This document shows positions 20,060-47,414 of a DNA stretch of 64,000 bases, one piece after another (position 1 is the first letter of the stretch; each line of letters opens with the position of its first letter). Position numbers and translations under genes: made by a program. Below the pieces are notes generated by a model. The model had not been told where the DNA came from. It saw only the letters and a list, made by a program, of their open reading frames with translations, and did no database searches. The stretch is from Candidatus Geohabitans tengchongensis (GTDB taxonomy: Bacteria > Sysuimicrobiota > Sysuimicrobiia > Sysuimicrobiales > Humicultoraceae), in assembly GCA_031459625.1 (NCBI GenBank), contig JAVKIH010000011.1:21031-85030 (forward strand), read 5' to 3'.

Positions 20060-21209
20060 GCCCGTCACGGTCCTGCATCTCATCGAGGGGCTGGGCACCG
20101 GTGGGTCGGAGCAGCACCTGGCCCACCTGGTGCTCCGGTCCGACAGGAGACGCTTCCGCCACCACGTCTGCGGGCTGGGCACGGCGGGTCGGTTCGCGCA
20201 GACCCTGGAGGCGGCAGGCATCCCGGTGTACACCCTGGGGTATCCTGCGGAACGCGACTTCCTGCGTCCGCTCGTGCCGCTTCGCCGTCTGGTGCAGCGC
20301 GTCTACCCCGACGTGCTCCACGCCTGCCTGTACCGGCCCGGCGTCCTGGCCCGCCTGATCGGCCGCTGGAGTGGCCTGCCGGTGGTGACGACCCTGGTGA
20401 ACACGGCCTACGAGCCGGAGTGGCGGCTGGACAACCCCCGGCTCTCGCCCCTCAAGGTCTCCCTGGCCCGGACGCTGGATGCGGCCACCGCCCGGTGGCG
20501 CGGCGCCTGGTTCGTGGCGGTGAGCGAGACGGTGCGCGACTCGGCGGTGCGCCAGCTGGGGATTCCAGCCGGGCGGGTTCGGGTCATTCGCCGTCCGCTG
20601 CTGCTGAGCCCCAACGGCCAGCGCCCTTCCGCCCAAGCGGTGCGCGCGGCGCTGGGGCTTCCGGACGCCGACCCGCTGCTGCTCAACGTCGGCCGCCTGG
20701 TGCCCCAGAAGGGACAGCAGTACGCCGTGCGCGCCATGCCGGGCATCCTGGCGTCCCGCCCGGGAGCCCACCTGGTGATCGTGGGCGAGGGGCCGCTGCG
20801 GCCCTCCCTGACCGCGCTGGCCGAGGCGCTGGGAGTGGCGGATCATGTCACGTTGCTGGGCGAACGGCACGACGTGCCCGACCTGCTGGCCGCCGCCGAC
20901 TGCTTCCTCTTCCCCTCGCTCTTCGAGGGTGCGGCCAATGCGCTGATGGAGGCGCTGGCGGCAGGGACGCCGGTGGTGGCTTCGGACATCCCGTCGCTGC
21001 GGGAGCTCACCGACGACGGCCGCGTGGCGGCGTTGGTCCCGCTGCGCGCGCCGGAGGCGCTGGCAGAGGCGGCCCTCGGCCTGCTGGCGGACGACGCGCG
21101 GCGACGCCGGCTCTGCGACGCTGGCCAAGCCTGGGTGCGTCGCTGGGGGGACGGCGACGCCGTCCTGGCCTGGGAGGAGTTCGTTGCTCACATCGCGGCC
21201 AGGGACTGA
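20052..21209 (+). CDS. Glycosyltransferase family 4
   Basis: GGSEQHL, GRLVPQKG, PSLFEGAANALMEA. Confidence 0.9.
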   Translation: MAKPVTVLHLIEGLGTGGSEQHLAHLVLRSDRRRFRHHVCGLGTAGRFAQTLEAAGIPVYTLGYPAERDFLRPLVPLRRLVQRVYPDVLHACLYRPGVLARLIGRWSGLPVVTTLVNTAYEPEWRLDNPRLSPLKVSLARTLDAATARWRGAWFVAVSETVRDSAVRQLGIPAGRVRVIRRPLLLSPNGQRPSAQAVRAALGLPDADPLLLNVGRLVPQKGQQYAVRAMPGILASRPGAHLVIVGEGPLRPSLTALAEALGVADHVTLLGERHDVPDLLAAADCFLFPSLFEGAANALMEALAAGTPVVASDIPSLRELTDDGRVAALVPLRAPEALAEAALGLLADDARRRRLCDAGQAWVRRWGDGDAVLAWEEFVAHIAARD

Positions 21210-35268: not shown

Positions 35269-35708
35269 CCGGTCTGAGCCTGGCTCAGGCCTTGGCTGCC
35301 GTGGAGGCCGCGCGGGCGGAAGCGGTGCGGCTCGGGGTGGCCCTGGGGATCGCCGTGGTCGACGCGGCGGGCCATCCCGTCGTCGTCGTCCGCATGGACG
35401 GGGCCATCTTCCTGGCCCCCGAGCTGGCCCTGAAGAAGGCCTTCACCGCGGCCGCCTTCCGCCGCCCCACCAGCGCCATCGCGCCGCGCCTGACCACCAG
35501 TGACTTCTGGATGCAGGCCCCCGCCGTGGCGCAGGGGCGCATCCTGGCCAGCGGCGGGGGTGTGCCGCTCCTCGTCGACGGGACCCTCGTCGGGGCGGTG
35601 GGGACGAGCGGGGGCACCAGTGAGCAGGACGACCTCTGCGCGCAGGCGGCCGCCGCCGCGGTGGCCGGGGGGGACGGGCGAGCGGCGGCCGGGGGGGACG
35701 GGCGATGA
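35265..35708 (+). CDS. GlcG/HbpS-family haem-binding protein
   Basis: IAVVDAAG, RMDGA, KKAFTA, GGGVPL..G..VGAVGTSGG..EQD. Confidence 0.9.
   Translation: MTGLSLAQALAAVEAARAEAVRLGVALGIAVVDAAGHPVVVVRMDGAIFLAPELALKKAFTAAAFRRPTSAIAPRLTTSDFWMQAPAVAQGRILASGGGVPLLVDGTLVGAVGTSGGTSEQDDLCAQAAAAAVAGGDGRAAAGGDGR
35663..35705. repeat. 19-bp direct repeat GGCCGGGGGGGACGGGCGA (24-bp period)
   Basis: Read directly; encodes AGGDGR twice at the C-terminus of the GlcG-like protein. Confidence 0.7.
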
Positions 35709-36934
35709 GCACCGACCGACCGGAGCGCCCACCGGCGGCGGGGCCGCTCGCCGGGGTGCGCGTCGTGGAGCTCGGCCACATGATCGCCGGGCCCTTCGCC
35801 ACCCTGCTGCTGAGCTACTTCGGCGCCGAGGTCATCAAGGTGGAGTCCCGGCACCGCATGGACGGCTTTCGGCGGCGCGAGGCGGCGACGAACTACCTGA
35901 CCCGGGCCTTCGGCGACTTCAACCGCAACAAGCGCTCCCTCACCCTGAACCTGCAGCAGCCGCGGGGGCGCGAGCTGCTGGGGCGGCTGTTGGCCCGCAG
36001 CGACGCGCTCCTGGAGAACTTCAGCGCCCGCGTCCTGCCCCAGTGGGGGCTCGACTGGCCGACGCTGCACCGCCGCTACCCGCGGCTCGTCGTCGTGCGC
36101 ATGCAGGGGCTCGGAGCCACGGGCCCGCACCGCGACTTCGTCACCTTCGGCCCGTCCATCCTGGCGCTCACCGGCTTCACCTACCTGTGGAACGCGCCGG
36201 GCGCCGACGAGGTGGTCGGCTCCCAGACCGCCCACGCCGACTACATCGCCGGCGTCCACGCTGCGGTGGCGGTCATGGCGGGCCTGCACCACCGCGCCCG
36301 CACCGGCGAGGGCCTCTACGTCGACGTCTCCCAGGCCGAGGCCACGGCCGCCCTGCTCGGCCCGGCGTACCTGGAATGGCTGCTGCTGGGCCGCGAGGCC
36401 CGACCGGTAGGCAACACCCGCCGGGAGTACGCCCCGGGCGGGTGCTACCGCTGCGCCGGCGAGGACGAGTGGTGCGTCATCACCGTCCGCACCGAGGCGG
36501 AGTGGGAGGCGCTGGTGCGGGCCACCGGGTGCACCGAATGGGCGCTCGATCCGCGCTTCCGCGACCGCACCCAGCGCACGCTCCACCGCCAGGCCCTCGA
36601 CGCCGCGCTGGAGACCTGGACGCGCCGGCGCCCGGCCGCCGAGGTCGTCCGGTTGCTGCGGGCCGCGGGCGTGCCGGCAGGGCAGGTCAAGAAGGGCAGC
36701 GACCTGCTGGCCGACCCGCACCTGCGGGCGCGCGGCTTCATCCACCACGTCGACCACCCCGCCTTCCGGCCGATCAGCTACCCGGGGGCTCCCGTGCGCC
36801 TGGTCGGCCACGAAGCCGCGACGCGCCGTCCGGCACCGACGCTGGGCCAGGACACCGAGGCGGTGCTGCGCGAGGTCCTGGAGTTGAACGCCGAGGAGAT
36901 CGAGCGCTACCGGGCCGAGGAGGTGCTGGTGTGA
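35705..36934 (+). CDS. Family III CoA-transferase (CaiB/BaiF)
   Basis: PLAGVRVVEL, AGP, GAEVIKVES, NRNKRS, ENF, catalytic Asp in ADYIAG, PTLGQDT. Confidence 0.92.
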   Translation: MSTDRPERPPAAGPLAGVRVVELGHMIAGPFATLLLSYFGAEVIKVESRHRMDGFRRREAATNYLTRAFGDFNRNKRSLTLNLQQPRGRELLGRLLARSDALLENFSARVLPQWGLDWPTLHRRYPRLVVVRMQGLGATGPHRDFVTFGPSILALTGFTYLWNAPGADEVVGSQTAHADYIAGVHAAVAVMAGLHHRARTGEGLYVDVSQAEATAALLGPAYLEWLLLGREARPVGNTRREYAPGGCYRCAGEDEWCVITVRTEAEWEALVRATGCTEWALDPRFRDRTQRTLHRQALDAALETWTRRRPAAEVVRLLRAAGVPAGQVKKGSDLLADPHLRARGFIHHVDHPAFRPISYPGAPVRLVGHEAATRRPAPTLGQDTEAVLREVLELNAEEIERYRAEEVLV

Positions 36935-36962
36935 GCGTGCGGGGCGTCGGGGAGGGACCGGG

Positions 36963-38177
36963 ATGAGTGTGCGGCGGCCGGAGACCGCGGCCCTCCCCGA
37001 GGCGGTCCCACGCCTGCCGCTACCGCAGCCGCTCCGCGGGGTGCGGGTGCTGGAGGTGGCGGACCGGCGCGTGGCCTATGCCGGACGCCTGCTGGCCGGG
37101 CTGGGAGCCGAGGTGATCCTCATCGAACCGCCGGAGCGGCGCCGCGACGCGCCCACGCCCGCGGACCTCTACTTCCGGACCGGGAAGAAGGCGGTCACGC
37201 TGGACCTCGCCGTCGCCGCCGGGCGCCACACCCTGTTCCGCCTGGCCGCGTATGCCGACGTCCTGCTGGTGGCCGGCCCGCCGGGGGAGCGGCGGCGGCT
37301 GGGGCTGACCTTCGAGGACCTCCACCCGGCGTTTCCCCGCCTGGTGGTGGGGAGCATCGCCGACTTCGGCCTGAGCGGCCCGGACGCCGACCGCCCGGCC
37401 AACGAGCTCGTGGCCTTCGCCGAGAGCGGGCTGATGTACATCAGTGGCAGGCCGGGCGAGCCGCCGGTGGCCGCCCCGCCCCACCACGCCGCCGACCTGG
37501 CCGGCGCCTACCTGGCCTTCGGAGTGCTGGTGGCCCTGTGGGAGCGCGCGCACACGCGGCGCGGCCGGGAGGTGGAGGTGTCCGTCCAGGAGGCCCTGGC
37601 CGTCGAGGAGCACACCATCTCCACTGCCTCGGACGAGGGGCGCGACCTGGTGCGCGTGGGCAGCCAGCACATGGTGGCGGTCCCGGGGTCGGTCTTCCGG
37701 GTGAAGGACGGCTACGTCCACGCCTACGTGGCCGACACCATGCCGGGGTCGTGGGAGCGGCTGCTGGAGTGGATGGGCCACCCGCCGGAGCTGGCCGACG
37801 AGCGCTACCGCCAGGGCCTCTACCGCCGCGCCCACGTCGAGGAGATCACTCCGGTGGTGGCCCGCTTCTTCGCCCGCTTCACCCGCCAGGAGCTTTACCT
37901 GGAAGGGCAGCGCCGGCGGTTGTGCATCACCCCGGTGAACACGCCGCGCGAGTACCTGGAGGACGTCCAGACCCGCGCGCGCGGGTTCGTCGTGCAGGCG
38001 CACGTACCGGGGCACGGATGGGTCGGCGTGCCGGGCGGCCCCTTCCTGCTGAACGGGCACCGCGTGCCCTTGCCCCCGGTGCCGCGCGTGGGCGAGCACA
38101 ACCGTGAGGTCTACCTGGGCCTGGTGGGCTACGGCGAAGAGGAGCTGGCGGTCCTGACCCAGGGCGGCGTCATCTGA
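36963..38177 (+). CDS. Family III CoA-transferase, second subunit (BbsE/BbsF-type pair)
   Basis: PLRGVRVLE, GAEVILIEPP, GKKAVTLDL, ADLAG, PRVGEHN. Confidence 0.88.
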   Translation: MSVRRPETAALPEAVPRLPLPQPLRGVRVLEVADRRVAYAGRLLAGLGAEVILIEPPERRRDAPTPADLYFRTGKKAVTLDLAVAAGRHTLFRLAAYADVLLVAGPPGERRRLGLTFEDLHPAFPRLVVGSIADFGLSGPDADRPANELVAFAESGLMYISGRPGEPPVAAPPHHAADLAGAYLAFGVLVALWERAHTRRGREVEVSVQEALAVEEHTISTASDEGRDLVRVGSQHMVAVPGSVFRVKDGYVHAYVADTMPGSWERLLEWMGHPPELADERYRQGLYRRAHVEEITPVVARFFARFTRQELYLEGQRRRLCITPVNTPREYLEDVQTRARGFVVQAHVPGHGWVGVPGGPFLLNGHRVPLPPVPRVGEHNREVYLGLVGYGEEELAVLTQGGVI

Positions 38178-43850: not shown

Positions 43851-45425
43851 GTGACCACCGCAGCTCCCGTACCCTCTGCGCTGTCCTCGGGCTCCGTGCC
43901 GATCGAAGAGGAGCCCTACGTGCACCTGCGCCTGGAGGACGGTGGGGTGACGGTGCGGGGGAACCCGGCGGTGACGTTGGGTCACCGGGTTCCCCGGGGA
44001 GCGGGGGAGAAGCCGGACGGCGTCTTCGCAGCCTGGTCCTGGGACGGCCGTGTCCTGCGCGTGGAGAACGACCGCTACGGGTGCTATCCGCTGTACTATG
44101 CCGCCGCTCCGGGCGAGCTCCGCCTCTCTCCCTCCATCCCGCGGCTTCTGCGCGCCGGGGTGTCGCGGGAAGTGGACGAGACGGCCCTCGGCGTCTTCCT
44201 GCGGCTGGGCTACTTTCTGGACGATGAAACACCGTTCCGGGCCATCCGGGCCGTGCCGCCCGACGCGACGTTCATCTGGCGCGACGGGCAGCTCGAGGTC
44301 AGCGGGCGCTACGCCGGCAGCCCGGAGCAGACCATCACCCGGAGGGCCGCCATCGACGCCTACGTCGAGCTGTTCCGGCAGGCGATCCGCCGCCGTCCCC
44401 CGACGGAGGAGGCGGTGGTGACCCTGAGCGGCGGGCGGGATTCCCGGCACATCCTCCTGGAACTGTGCGCACAGGGCACCCCACCCCGGCGGTGCGTCAC
44501 CACCTACCGGTCCTTTCCGTCCATGCTGGGCCGTCACGCGCCCAGCGAGGACGTGGAGCTCGCCCGGGCCCTGGCCGAAGCCGTCAGGGTGGAGCACGTG
44601 CTGGTCCCGCAGTCCCCTTCGGCGCTGCGCGCCGAGCGCCGCAAGAACCTGCTGACCGGCTTCTGCACAGACGAGCATGGGTGGTACGTCGCGGTGGCCG
44701 ACTACCTGAAGGGCCACGCCACGGCCGTGTACGACGGGATCGCCGGCGACGGGCTCTCCGAGGACCCGCTGCTCGACGCGGAGGGGCTGCGCCTCTACCG
44801 GGAGGGGCGGCTGGGCGAGCTGGCAGACCGCTGGCTCGACGAGCGGGAGGAGGCTCTCCTCCGCACGCTCATCCCGCCGATGTGGGCGGGGGCGGCCGAC
44901 CGCGACCGGGTCCACGCGCGCCTGGTGGCGGAGCTGCGCGCCTTCGCGGGCGCGCCCAATCCGGTGGGGACCTTCCTCTTCTGGAGCCTCACCCGCCGCG
45001 AGACCGCCCTGGCCCCCTACGGCCTGCTGCGCGGGGTCGACCTCGTCTACAGTCCCTACCTGGACCACGATCTCTACGACTTCCTGACGTCGCTGCCTGG
45101 GGAGATGCTGCTGGGCCACCGGTTCCACACGGAGACGATCGCGCGGGGGCATCCCCGCTACGCCGCCTTTCCCTACCCCTCGAAGGATGCGGCGGCCCTG
45201 CGGCGGCCGGTGCGTCATCGGTCCTTCACCCTGGAGGTGCTCCGCGAGGTGCTCGCCCGGCCCACGGCGTTCCGGGCGACGCTGGTCCCCACACTCCTCG
45301 CCGCGCTGGCCCGGGGAGCCCCCCGCTGGGTGTTGCCGGTCGTCGTCTACCTCATGCAGCTCGAGGAGGTCTGCCGCGACCTGCCGGCGTGGTGGCGGGC
45401 CGGTGAGCCCGGCGAGGGGGCCTGA
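43851..45425 (+). CDS. Asparagine-synthetase-like ATP-dependent amide ligase without the N-terminal Cys
   Basis: DRYGCYPLYY, TPFRAI, PP-loop LSGGRDSR, GIAGD, SPYLDHD. Confidence 0.78.
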   Translation: MTTAAPVPSALSSGSVPIEEEPYVHLRLEDGGVTVRGNPAVTLGHRVPRGAGEKPDGVFAAWSWDGRVLRVENDRYGCYPLYYAAAPGELRLSPSIPRLLRAGVSREVDETALGVFLRLGYFLDDETPFRAIRAVPPDATFIWRDGQLEVSGRYAGSPEQTITRRAAIDAYVELFRQAIRRRPPTEEAVVTLSGGRDSRHILLELCAQGTPPRRCVTTYRSFPSMLGRHAPSEDVELARALAEAVRVEHVLVPQSPSALRAERRKNLLTGFCTDEHGWYVAVADYLKGHATAVYDGIAGDGLSEDPLLDAEGLRLYREGRLGELADRWLDEREEALLRTLIPPMWAGAADRDRVHARLVAELRAFAGAPNPVGTFLFWSLTRRETALAPYGLLRGVDLVYSPYLDHDLYDFLTSLPGEMLLGHRFHTETIARGHPRYAAFPYPSKDAAALRRPVRHRSFTLEVLREVLARPTAFRATLVPTLLAALARGAPRWVLPVVVYLMQLEEVCRDLPAWWRAGEPGEGA

Positions 45426-45430
45426 CGTCC

Positions 45431-46270
45431 GTGTACCACGTTACCCTCGACGGCTTCCGCGGGTACCGTTCGCGCTTCGACGACATTCGGCTCGTCCAGG
45501 AAGTCCTGGAGGGACTGCCCGTGATCCTCGAGTTGCAGCCGACGATGCCGGCGTTCCTGCTCCCCTACTACAACGGCGTGGTCCCCGAGGACTGCGGCAT
45601 CAGCGCGTTCGTGTTCCTGGAAGGCGGCCACTGCACCATCCACACCTTCTCCTTCCGTGAGACGTATTTTGCTGACGTCGTCTCGCCGCGGGCGTTCGAT
45701 GCCGAGCGGCTGTATCGGCACTTGCAGGCCGCCTTCCCGTGCGCCATCACCGCTGTCAGTGCCCTGTCCCGTGACGGGACTCCGGTCGAGGCGCCCGAGG
45801 CGGACCCGGAGGCCGACTTCGGCCCGCACTACTTCCTGGACCTCATGGACTACGCCGGCCCGGCCCACCTGGACGAGGTGTTCGACCTGTTCGACCGGCT
45901 GCCGGGGGTGATCGGGATGACACCGATCATGCGTCCGTACGTCCTGCGGGGCCGGACGGCGGACGGCCGGCAGCACGTTAGCGCGATGACCATGATCGCG
46001 GAGAGTCACCTCGCCCTGCACGTCTTCCCCGGGGACCGTCGGGCGCACTTCGACCTGTTCTCGTGTCGCTTCTTCGACCACACCGCGGTCATCCCGCGGA
46101 TCCGGCGGGAGTTGCCCGGGACGATCCGCGGGGAAGCGCTCATCGCCCGAGGGCGGCGCTATCGCTACCTGCGGATGGACGGGCCGGGACACACGGCCCA
46201 GGCCCGGGCGTGGGTCAGGGTCTTGCCGGCCTCGGCGGCCGCGGAGGAGGTCGGCGCATCCTCCGGGTGA
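45431..46270 (+). CDS. Tandem two-domain S-adenosylmethionine decarboxylase-fold (pyruvoyl) protein
   Basis: Domain 1 GISAFVFLEGGHCTIHTF; domain 2 GPH..D, SAMTMIAESHLALHVFP..DLFSC. Confidence 0.82.
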   Translation: MYHVTLDGFRGYRSRFDDIRLVQEVLEGLPVILELQPTMPAFLLPYYNGVVPEDCGISAFVFLEGGHCTIHTFSFRETYFADVVSPRAFDAERLYRHLQAAFPCAITAVSALSRDGTPVEAPEADPEADFGPHYFLDLMDYAGPAHLDEVFDLFDRLPGVIGMTPIMRPYVLRGRTADGRQHVSAMTMIAESHLALHVFPGDRRAHFDLFSCRFFDHTAVIPRIRRELPGTIRGEALIARGRRYRYLRMDGPGHTAQARAWVRVLPASAAAEEVGASSG

Positions 46271-46274
46271 TCCG

Positions 46275-47414
46275 ATGACCGCCAGTCCGTCCATGAGGCT
46301 GCGACCATCCGTGGCCTTGGTCCACCACGGGCAGTTCTCCGGGTGCACGGCATCGCTGCGCGGCGCCCTGGCCGCGCGGATGTCGGTGGTCGACCTGGAC
46401 CTGCTCCGCCTGGCGCGGCGCCCCGCGTTGCTGCGCGCCCGGGTGCGCGCGACGTGGGAAGCGCAGCGAACGGGCAGGGGGACGCCCTGGGTGAAGACGG
46501 GGGCCTGGTCCCGGGCCTGTCAGCAGTGGGCGGAGGAGCACGGGTTCCTTGCGCCACACCGTCCCGTCCTGTTCCTGCAGACCCTCTCAGCCTTCGTGCT
46601 GGACAGGGCGGGGCCACGGTACGCCGTCTACACCGATCGGGTCAGCGCCGAGGGGGCGACCCGGGACGGGGTCTACGCGTCGCGGTTCACACCGGCGTGG
46701 CGGGCCCGGGAGCGGGTGTTCCTCCAGCGGGCGGAACGGGTCTTCGTGATGGGTCCGGCAACACAAGACGTGCTGGAACGGGAGTACGGCGTCCCGCGGT
46801 GGCGCGTCAGTGTGGTCGGCGGCGGGCCCAACGTCCCGCTCACCGGGCCCGTCCAAGCCGACCGGTGCCGTGCCCTGCTCTTCGTGGGGCGGGAGTGGGA
46901 GATGAAGGGCGGCCCGCTGGTGTTGCGCGCCTTCCAGCAGCTGCGCCGTCGGTTCCCCGACCTGGAACTCCTCATCGCGGGCTGCAGGCCGTTCGTCCGG
47001 CCCCCGGCGGGAGTGCGGATGTTGGGCTGGGTGCCTCGCGAGGCCATGGACGACGTCTACTCCGCGGCCCAGATCCTGGTGGTCCCCGGTTACAAGGAAG
47101 CATTTGGACACGCCTTCGTCGAGGGGCTCATCAAGGGCCTGCCCTGTGTGGCCTCGTGTGGAGGGAACCAGGCCGACCTGATCGCCGATGCCGGGCGCTG
47201 CGTCCCCCCCGGAGACGTGGGGGCGTTGCGCGTGGCGCTGGCCGAGGTCATCGCCCGCTACCCGGAGTACCGGCGTCGGGCCGTGCGACGGGGCCGGGAG
47301 CTGCGGGAACGCTTCGCCTGGGACCGCATTGCCGGCCGCATCCTGGGGGAGTTCCTGGAGGCGGCCCCGGTGTCCGGGGAGGACCCGGCGCGCCCGACAC
47401 CAGCGCGGTCCTGA
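46275..47414 (+). CDS. Glycosyltransferase family 4
   Basis: LFVGREWEMKGG, EAFGHAFVE; paralogue of 21184-22302. Confidence 0.87.
   Translation: MTASPSMRLRPSVALVHHGQFSGCTASLRGALAARMSVVDLDLLRLARRPALLRARVRATWEAQRTGRGTPWVKTGAWSRACQQWAEEHGFLAPHRPVLFLQTLSAFVLDRAGPRYAVYTDRVSAEGATRDGVYASRFTPAWRARERVFLQRAERVFVMGPATQDVLEREYGVPRWRVSVVGGGPNVPLTGPVQADRCRALLFVGREWEMKGGPLVLRAFQQLRRRFPDLELLIAGCRPFVRPPAGVRMLGWVPREAMDDVYSAAQILVVPGYKEAFGHAFVEGLIKGLPCVASCGGNQADLIADAGRCVPPGDVGALRVALAEVIARYPEYRRRAVRRGRELRERFAWDRIAGRILGEFLEAAPVSGEDPARPTPARS

Follow-up and report, generated by a model that had tools for sequence, protein, structure and literature searches.

The gene at positions 45431..46270 (+ strand) of a 64,000-nucleotide stretch of Candidatus Geohabitans tengchongensis DNA (contig JAVKIH010000011.1, forward-strand positions 21,031 to 85,030; the whole stretch is called the window below) encodes a protein in which two S-adenosylmethionine decarboxylase (AdoMetDC)-fold domains are joined in tandem and only the C-terminal one carries a self-cleavage motif. 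With a probability of about 0.5, we read its product as a pyruvoyl decarboxylase that processes itself, has one active site and acts on a basic amino acid, with arginine or ornithine as the likeliest substrate. The protein would be a single-chain 'pseudo-heterodimer' of two class-1b AdoMetDC-fold domains, and the proenzyme would cleave itself between Glu191 and Ser192 in the C-half to yield an N-terminal chain of 21 kDa and a C-terminal one of 10 kDa that starts with a pyruvoyl group. One active site would form at the domain interface, with the pyruvoyl group and Cys212 from the C-half and Ser58, His71 and a family-specific PYYNG...PEDCG loop from the N-half; the N-half, unable to self-process, would be kept under strong constraint as the active site's other wall. 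The tandem enzyme would descend from a SpeDA-like (arginine decarboxylase-type) clade of SpeD homologues and convert L-arginine in the first place, and L-ornithine in the second, to agmatine or putrescine. The domain architecture, fold, residue pattern, family-wide conservation, paralogy with canonical speD and descent from a "PED-loop" clade of SpeD homologues are documented below; autocleavage, an active site built in trans and the nature of the substrate are inferred.

Domain architecture, fold and residue pattern

Features of the gene and its product were assigned as follows (residues of Thermotoga maritima AdoMetDC are given for comparison):

45431..46270, + strand: whole gene, tandem AdoMetDC-fold protein of 279 aa; GTG start, stop codon at 46268-46270
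45431..45790, + strand: N-half domain (residues 1-120), non-processing AdoMetDC fold; from Pfam (32.2 bits), superposition on 1vr7_B (Z 17.2) and profile alignment to 1tlu
45569..45595, + strand: nine-residue insert Y47-C55 (YNGVVPEDC), immediately preceded by Y46; absent from T. maritima AdoMetDC
45602..45604, + strand: Ser58, counterpart of T. maritima Ser55, nearly invariant; from profile and family alignments
45620..45631, + strand: vestigial cleavage site E64-G65-G66-H67, with Gly-Gly in place of Glu-Ser
45641..45655, + strand: H71-T-F-S-F75, with Phe75 at the position of the ribose-binding Glu72 in the canonical HTWPE
45815..46159, + strand: C-half domain (residues 129-243), starting at DFGPH, predicted processing and catalytic AdoMetDC fold; from Pfam (37.8 bits), the 1tlu profile and the structure model
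46001..46006, + strand: predicted autocleavage site between E191 and S192, where Ser192 would become the pyruvoyl group
46019..46021, + strand: His197, counterpart of T. maritima His68, predicted to face the vestigial site, nearly invariant
46064..46066, + strand: Cys212, counterpart of T. maritima Cys83, invariant
46148..46153, + strand: R240-G241, invariant pair closing the C-half

The gene has a GC content at third codon positions of 0.90, on par with the adjoining genes, and a Shine-Dalgarno-like GAGGGGG run lies ~10 nt upstream of its start. The full 279-aa protein was matched by Pfam AdoMet_dc (PF02675; gathering cut-off 25 bits) over two stretches (66.6 bits), and when each half was scanned separately both passed, the N-half at 32.2 bits over residues 3-114 (profile positions 1-106 of 107) and the C-half at 37.8 bits, as the first-pass annotation of this DNA, which had described two SpeD-like repeats here, had anticipated. 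The halves matched each other by hhalign (probability 96.8%, E 3.1e-10, 110 columns, 21% identity) and by BLASTP (E 1e-4) and, judged by these alignments, are mutually homologous. The C-half profile matched T. maritima 1tlu at E 1.2e-5; profiles were required for this, a single-sequence search of the PDB returning weak matches only (E 0.1 to 0.34). PADLOC gave no match for the tandem protein or 4 of its neighbours.

The structure model (pLDDT 91.3) had T. maritima AdoMetDC as its top Foldseek match in the PDB (1tmi_A, E 4.5e-7, TM by target 0.80, root-mean-square deviation (rmsd) 1.8 A), followed by human proenzyme chains. With VIA-align, model residues 1-119 were superposed on T. maritima 1vr7_B (Z 17.2, rmsd 2.3, 112 residues aligned) and model residues 1-239 on residues 11-286 of the entire human proenzyme 1msv_B (Z 15.4, rmsd 3.1 A, 203 residues, 6% identity); the Trypanosoma brucei AdoMetDC/prozyme entry 5tvf gave Z 12.1. 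From the per-domain and human-protomer superpositions, which had been proposed earlier as a check, the single chain is predicted to form the complete sandwich of a class 1b homodimer or a eukaryotic protomer.

Residues were mapped onto T. maritima AdoMetDC by profile alignments of both halves to 1tlu:

His7: C-half H133
Glu11: N-half D7; C-half D137 (not conserved)
Phe49: N-half L43
Tyr52: N-half Y46, followed by the nine-residue insert YNGVVPEDC
Ser55: N-half S58; C-half S184
Glu62-Ser63: N-half G65-G66; C-half E191-S192
His64: N-half H67
His68: N-half H71; C-half H197
Glu72: N-half F75; C-half G201
Asp79: N-half D82; C-half D208
Cys83: N-half none; C-half C212

All motifs quoted in the first-pass annotation were located, namely A190-E-S-H193 and D208-L-F-S-C212, E64-G-G-H67 and D82-V-V-S-P86, G56-I-S58 and I70-H-T-F73, and HTFSF (F75) and HVFPG (G201). 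What had been said of them also held: the cleavage motif and the Cys are confined to the C-half (E191-S192 and Cys212, the N-half having Gly-Gly-His and no Cys), the N-half retains the Ser and the His (Ser58, His71), and the Glu of HTWPE is absent from both halves, at F75 and G201.

The processing and catalytic residues of T. maritima AdoMetDC are S63, H68 and C83 (PMC10407285). During AdoMetDC processing the His abstracts a proton, the Glu at the end of the His strand binds both ribose hydroxyls, and in the eukaryotic enzyme both halves supply residues to one site (PMC1282579). In the tandem protein the counterparts of Ser63, His68 and Cys83 all lie in the C-half (S192, H197, C212), and the N-half adds H71 and S58. 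Because Gly-Gly replaces Glu-Ser in the N-half, a pyruvoyl group cannot form there, and with G66 at the Ser position and no Cys in that half only one self-processing site qualifies. Its cleavage would give chains of 21.4 kDa (residues 1-191) and 9.8 kDa (residues 192-279). By homology the live site would comprise pyruvoyl-192 and C212 from the C-half with S58 and H71 from the N-half, Ser58 being predicted to serve it in trans by analogy with the eukaryotic enzyme (PMC1282579). The ribose-binding Glu would need to come from the N-half, where Phe75 occupies its position. The Y47-C55 insert, common to the tandem family and its single-domain relatives, is proposed as a substrate-binding loop.

Conservation, origin and relation to known enzymes

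The family numbers at least 408 homologues and 195 genome loci in many phyla. A word-indexed protein search returned the 408 proteins at E <= 0.001 among 4618 candidates, and the 120 matches listed ranged in length from 232 to 351 aa, with identities of 49-95% across 81-100% of the query. An exhaustive search of cluster representatives returned 509 at E <= 0.001 (108 at <= 1e-10, 33 at <= 1e-30), and a one-genome-per-species scan gave 244 pattern matches, 195 of them encoding a relative, from which 80 loci were kept. These loci were titled Rokuibacteriota/Methylomirabilota, Myxococcota (with 12 complete Sorangium chromosomes), Bacillota (Thermincola among them), Aminicenantes, a Deinococcus metagenome-assembled genome, and others.

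In 60 sequences of 24-95% identity the invariant residues were D7, Y46, G56, H67, H71, D82, G131, H133, M163, A190, S192, H193, D208, S211, C212, R240 and G241, and the nearly invariant ones included H3, D54, S58, G65, G66, S184, E191 and H197. This bears on the suspicion that the protein is a non-catalytic or regulatory pseudoenzyme, a ligand binder that keeps the fold without decarboxylating anything, which one might entertain given that one of the two sites is plainly dead and that dead paralogues regulating live ones are known in this fold (the T. brucei prozyme of 5tvf, Z 12.1). The invariance of S192, H193, C212 and H71 and near-invariance of E191 and S58, down to 24% identity, suggest instead the pattern of a working pyruvoyl site, and we regard a pseudoenzyme as highly improbable.

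Of the 120 close homologues listed, 118 fall in the length range 240-310 aa; in these the N-half site was Gly-Gly in 117 and Glu-Gly in 1, and the C-half site was Glu-Ser in 116, the remaining two rows being possible mis-picks of the pattern; on these counts the asymmetry of the cleavage sites is not due to chance. In 41 distant representatives of the same length range, both sites were resolved by pattern in 33 (eight unresolved); the N-half site lacked Ser or Thr in 30/33 (Gly-Ser in 2, Gly-Thr in 1), and the C-half site was Glu-Ser in 29/33 and Gln-Ser in 4/33. Three distant tandem members (P0148, P0207, P0221) have Gly-Ser-His or Gly-Thr-His at the N-half site, so some distant relatives may keep or regain a second cleavable site. 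Mean column identity over the same 14 genomes was 67% for the N-half versus 55% for the C-half, by which measure the non-processing N-half is the better conserved half, not a decayed one.

For the origin of the fusion, a tree of 50 rows and 133 columns was computed from 14 N-halves, 14 C-halves, 15 single-domain relatives, 6 canonical SpeDs and 1 SpeDC-type protein. The N-halves formed one clade (100/100) and the C-halves another (100/100), and the canonical SpeDs were split at 99/98 from the group holding both halves and all single-domain relatives. The halves and the single-domain relatives have in common, as against T. maritima, a PED-x-G loop, HTFP for HTWP, FSC-K/R-x-F-D and a C-terminal RG motif, and on the tree both halves descend from this single-domain PED-loop clade, not from canonical SpeD. 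A search with P0251 for relatives of the clade gave 1066 matches, and the HTWPE-type Glu is kept in 7/15 of the nearest single-domain relatives. This variability of the Glu, the size and conservation of the family and the better conservation of the N-half had been overlooked in the first-pass annotation. That annotation had proposed an independent, mirror-image duplication-fusion; independent origin, reversed polarity and a single predicted C-half site stand, while the duplication itself is neither upheld nor rejected, in that the halves were not sisters in the free tree and a tree forcing their sisterhood was not rejected (approximately unbiased test, p 0.09). Duplication in place and fusion of two diverged paralogues would both be compatible with the tree. 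P0232, a stand-alone homologue of 146 aa that lacks both the Ser (AEGH) and the Cys (FSARD), was sister to the N-halves (92/90); it may be a dead partner subunit comparable to the prozyme, and hints at a free-standing stage of this kind.

Four known systems were compared. The SpeD1-SpeD2 fusions of Desulfotignum phosphitoxidans, Candidatus Omnitrophica OLB16 and Victivallis vadensis (PMC10407285) likewise hold two class-1b domains in ~270-320 aa, and in V. vadensis one domain only self-processes, as predicted for the tandem family. As that paper presents them, however, their N-domain is a bona fide AdoMetDC (AESHF..H.WPE..FTCG) and their C-domain a SpeDC ornithine decarboxylase (QLIETSL..) or a decayed copy, whereas the tandem family has a non-processing N-domain (Gly-Gly-His without Cys) and a predicted live C-domain that is not SpeDC-type. 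Neither tandem half is canonical, both come from another SpeD clade, and the non-processing half is the better conserved one. Since the fusions described there are built otherwise, with a canonical N-domain, the tandem family would be an independent fusion.

Eukaryotic class 2 AdoMetDC (human, 1msv, 1jl0) is likewise one chain folded as a four-layer sandwich, with one pyruvoyl site drawn from both halves. Human Ser68 and Cys82 belong to the N-half, Ser229, His243 and Glu247 to the C-half. The pyruvoyl Ser and the Cys of the human enzyme are in the N-half and the Ser/His/Glu in the C-half (PMC1282579), whereas in the tandem family the arrangement is reversed, with the pyruvoyl Ser C-terminal, and no ribose-binding Glu is present; identity over the superposition is 6%, and the two are of independent origin. 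SpeDA, an AdoMetDC homologue neofunctionalised to L-arginine decarboxylase (PMC10407285, PMC13625781), is likewise a SpeD homologue that co-occurs with canonical speD and lies beside speY, speB or speE, and such contexts are shown by the nearest single-domain relatives of both halves and by 18 tandem loci with a deoxyhypusine-synthase homologue. SpeDA is characterised by activity on L-arginine, lack of AdoMetDC activity and clustering with speY, speB or aguAB, without a sharp sequence signature in the published description. The assayed SpeDA proteins (PMC10407285) are not SpeD-SpeD fusions and, being class-1b-like, would presumably have a pair of identical sites in each dimer, whereas the tandem protein is fused and asymmetric, with one predicted site. 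The T. brucei AdoMetDC/prozyme pair likewise couples a live unit to a dead paralogue, but as two separate class 2 chains that decarboxylate AdoMet, the tandem protein having class-1b-type domains in one chain.

The tandem architecture was not found described in the open literature searched, a coverage outside which subscription-only papers fall. As far as these comparisons reach, the family is a conserved variant of the AdoMetDC-fold pyruvoyl enzymes with one predicted site, reversed polarity and an independent origin. Enzymes of this fold have changed substrate repeatedly, and two-domain fusions model the origin of the eukaryotic enzyme (PMC10407285). The tandem family represents a second such fusion, independent of the first and far more widespread, with reversed polarity, one predicted pyruvoyl site and an N-half under stronger constraint, and it offers a natural experiment in the passage from a symmetric homodimer with two shared sites to an asymmetric single chain with one.

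AdoMet, arginine and ornithine as possible substrates

Homologues are named 'S-adenosylmethionine decarboxylase' or 'S-adenosylmethionine/arginine decarboxylase-like enzyme' at source, and the catalytic Glu-Ser, His and Cys are present, as they would be in an ordinary AdoMetDC serving as a second isozyme for spermidine synthesis. The NCBIfam equivalog for that activity (TIGR03330, EC 4.1.1.50), however, scored the tandem protein at 39.5 bits against a cut-off of 75.65, no other NCBIfam model matched it, and the canonical SpeD of the source genome (ISESHLSVHTWPE...FTCG) scored ~135 bits. Family alignments have no conserved Glu at the ribose-binding position of either half, and Leu or Ile (L43 in the tandem protein) stands at the position of T. 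maritima Phe49, an aromatic residue that we take to stack on adenine.

A separate canonical speD was present in 6/6 genomes examined that carry the tandem gene, which was thus never the sole SpeD homologue; in the five genomes other than the source, the single-domain SpeD scored 151.9, 140.2, 137, 127.4 and 75.4 bits. Canonical speD adjoins speE in two of them (G002 and G005), and speE was clear in 4/5 and weak in G003 (34 bits). In the source genome speE (202.5 bits) lies on contig C14 directly beside a gene for a PvlArgDC-fold pyruvoyl arginine decarboxylase (G000:C14:31539-32713), canonical speD lies on another contig (C12:201781-202101), and the sole PF02784 match is diaminopimelate decarboxylase. 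The tandem gene was not adjacent to speE in the window or in the scanned loci, and its halves branch apart from canonical SpeD. The tandem protein is very probably not an S-adenosylmethionine decarboxylase, the isozyme alternative being improbable on these grounds, and hundreds of entries carrying that label are probably mislabelled. The earlier suggestion of a substrate other than AdoMet, drawn from the missing Glu, gains from the TIGR03330 score, the family-wide absence of the Glu and the separate speD in 6/6 genomes, a backing that remains indirect.

Links to a basic amino acid substrate come from genomic context. In Microcystis phage MaAM05 (L098, 3546-6324), canonical speH, PED-type speH, speE and speB stand in a row, a set that would lead all the way from arginine to spermidine and includes two distinct SpeD homologues. 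Vampirovibrio chlorellavorus has the same gene order, and there the second SpeD homologue is an assayed arginine decarboxylase (PMC10407285). P0258 combines a PED-type SpeD and a deoxyhypusine-synthase domain in one chain, and the Atlas has a cluster of 68 proteins of this kind. In 18/80 loci (within L002-L021, e.g. L012:8793-9877) the tandem gene has, immediately downstream and in the same orientation, a gene for a full-length deoxyhypusine-synthase homologue, which matches PDB 7cmc at E 8.6e-25 over residues 41-348 and whose reading frame is open from before the tandem gene's stop; it was the only recurrent informative neighbour of the family. Crude open reading frame (ORF) calling in these high-GC loci had hidden this gene, which was revealed through P0392. 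Bacterial deoxyhypusine-synthase homologues (SpeY) make homospermidine from putrescine or agmatine, and speDA-speY gene clusters, which the arrangement in the 18 loci matches, have been described (PMC10407285, PMC13625781).

P0392 itself (522 aa, tandem SpeD plus deoxyhypusine synthase) is treated as a lead and not as a true fusion, being one sequence with no contig on record, whose synthase domain lacks the first 55 profile positions; it resembles an in-frame merge of the tandem and deoxyhypusine-synthase genes. In 11 of the 18 deoxyhypusine-synthase loci the tandem gene is immediately preceded by an SDR gene; SDR matches were found in 12 loci in all, one of them weak (30% identity, Thermincola L061, 1.4 kb away).

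Several observations weigh against arginine or ornithine decarboxylation at a single site. The PED clade is tied to assayed arginine decarboxylases by gene order and nothing else. Of the 18 deoxyhypusine-synthase loci, 17 are titled Rokuibacteriota or Methylomirabilota, a single lineage, and the adjacency may count as a single evolutionary observation; the homologue was not found in the source genome (94% complete) or in G002-G004. A further arginine or ornithine decarboxylase would be redundant in the source genome, which has PvlArgDC, and in the complete Myxococcota chromosome G002, which has a SpeDC-type homologue (L095, G002:C1:4288446-4289069, QLIETSLISMH...YLDVFSCKWY) in addition to speD-speE and the tandem gene, and in which no PF02784, OKR_DC_1 or PvlArgDC match was found. 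Four residues surrounding the cleavage site, Gln, Thr, Phe and Tyr, are diagnostic of SpeDC (PMC10407285), their positions being taken as QLIETS... from its Fig S5 and from L095; the C-half reads TMIAESHLALHVF versus QLIETSLISGHF in SpeDC (Fig S5, PMC10407285) and QLIETSLISMH in L095, so that the Gln/Thr signature is absent from it at the positions so placed. Lastly, D7 and H67 (N-half) and S184 and H197 (C-half), which would line the vestigial site, are conserved as strongly as the live site, which a simple one-site model does not explain.

Replacement of PanD was also considered and rejected, PanD being not found in the source genome or G005 and present in G002-G004, with no pattern. If arginine or ornithine is the substrate, polyamine pathway predictions would change for Methylomirabilota/Rokubacteria, Myxococcota, several Bacillota and others.

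Gene neighbourhood and occurrence

The genes flanking the tandem gene in the window are:

43851..45425, + strand: upstream neighbour, asparagine-synthase-like protein of 524 aa, with its stop 5 nt before the tandem gene start
46275..47414, + strand: downstream neighbour, GT4 glycosyltransferase, starting 4 nt after the tandem gene stop

The asparagine-synthase-like protein, a candidate for an amide ligase that uses an amine, has no N-terminal catalytic Cys and matches GATase_7 weakly, and its NCBIfam scores stay well under every cut-off. Also encoded in this long locus, on the same strand, are an extradiol-dioxygenase-like protein, two GT2 glycosyltransferases, a DegT aminotransferase, a Polysacc_synt_2 dehydratase, two CoA-transferases, an acyl-CoA dehydrogenase and ABC transporter parts. 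Two distant tandem members, P0190 (480 aa) and P0195 (571 aa), have an N-terminal HAD-IIB-like domain, placed from the Atlas (Hydrolase_3, S6PP, trehalose phosphatase; TM 0.67-0.75), Pfam giving no match for that part. A window context unlike that of polyamine genes and these HAD-IIB-like fusions leave room for a substrate outside the polyamine field.

One such proposal is a pyruvoyl decarboxylase whose substrate lies beyond AdoMet, arginine and ornithine and whose amine product would be coupled by the Cys-less asparagine-synthase-like ligase onto a carboxylate of the glycan made by the neighbouring glycosyltransferases. It draws on the translational coupling of the tandem gene to the asparagine-synthase-like gene (stop 45425, start 45431) and to the GT4 gene (46275), on the GT4, two GT2, DegT and Polysacc_synt_2 genes of the locus, on a second-study contig that retains the gene order with 138 differences over 5.5 kb, on one Bacillota locus that also lies beside Bac_transf and Polysacc_synt genes, on the arginine decarboxylase, speD and speE that the source genome already has elsewhere, and on the HAD-IIB-like domain of P0190 and P0195 as a hint of a phosphorylated substrate. 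When 19 window proteins were searched by tblastn against the 80 loci, however, the neighbours were not kept beside homologues (asparagine-synthase-like 0, GT4 1, enoyl-CoA hydratase 5, dioxygenase 0), and all-against-all clustering of 3086 ORFs with Pfam on 46 neighbour ORFs gave lineage-limited synteny only. The only recurrent informative neighbour elsewhere is of polyamine type, deoxyhypusine synthase, and the HAD fusions are two representatives only, at 33-34% identity. We hold the glycan proposal as possible though rather unlikely.

More doubtful still is a composite proposal in which the protein would be a convergent, polarity-reversed counterpart of the eukaryotic protomer whose vestigial site (D7, G65-G66-H67, S184, H197) binds an effector or second substrate, with a substrate that is none of AdoMet, arginine and ornithine and an amine product for the ligase to place onto a glycan. 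A basic amino acid decarboxylase remains our preferred reading.

Further upstream on the same strand (window 35705-38177) is a pair of neighbouring family III CoA-transferase genes, behind which come genes for an acyl-CoA dehydrogenase, an NMT1-type binding protein, two ABC permeases and an enoyl-CoA hydratase.

The gene was absent at E <= 1e-20 from 60 relatives of the source genome (33 from its family and 27 from its order), and the closest homologues beyond the strain, at 59-62% identity, belong to other phyla, so it was probably acquired horizontally. Among viral contigs 22 pattern matches were obtained, none a relative of the tandem protein, and the phage collection held single-domain homologues only, in 3 records.

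Public runs holding this stretch were labelled hot-spring metagenomes. Run X4 ('RNA', labelled metatranscriptomic) was rejected as transcription evidence, since its contig has the same shape and ends as that of the DNA run X1 of the same study; it gives no evidence of expression. The second-study contig covers 42900-48400 in the same gene order at ~97.5% identity (138 differences and 4 gaps), with a 3-nt insertion behind 45423.

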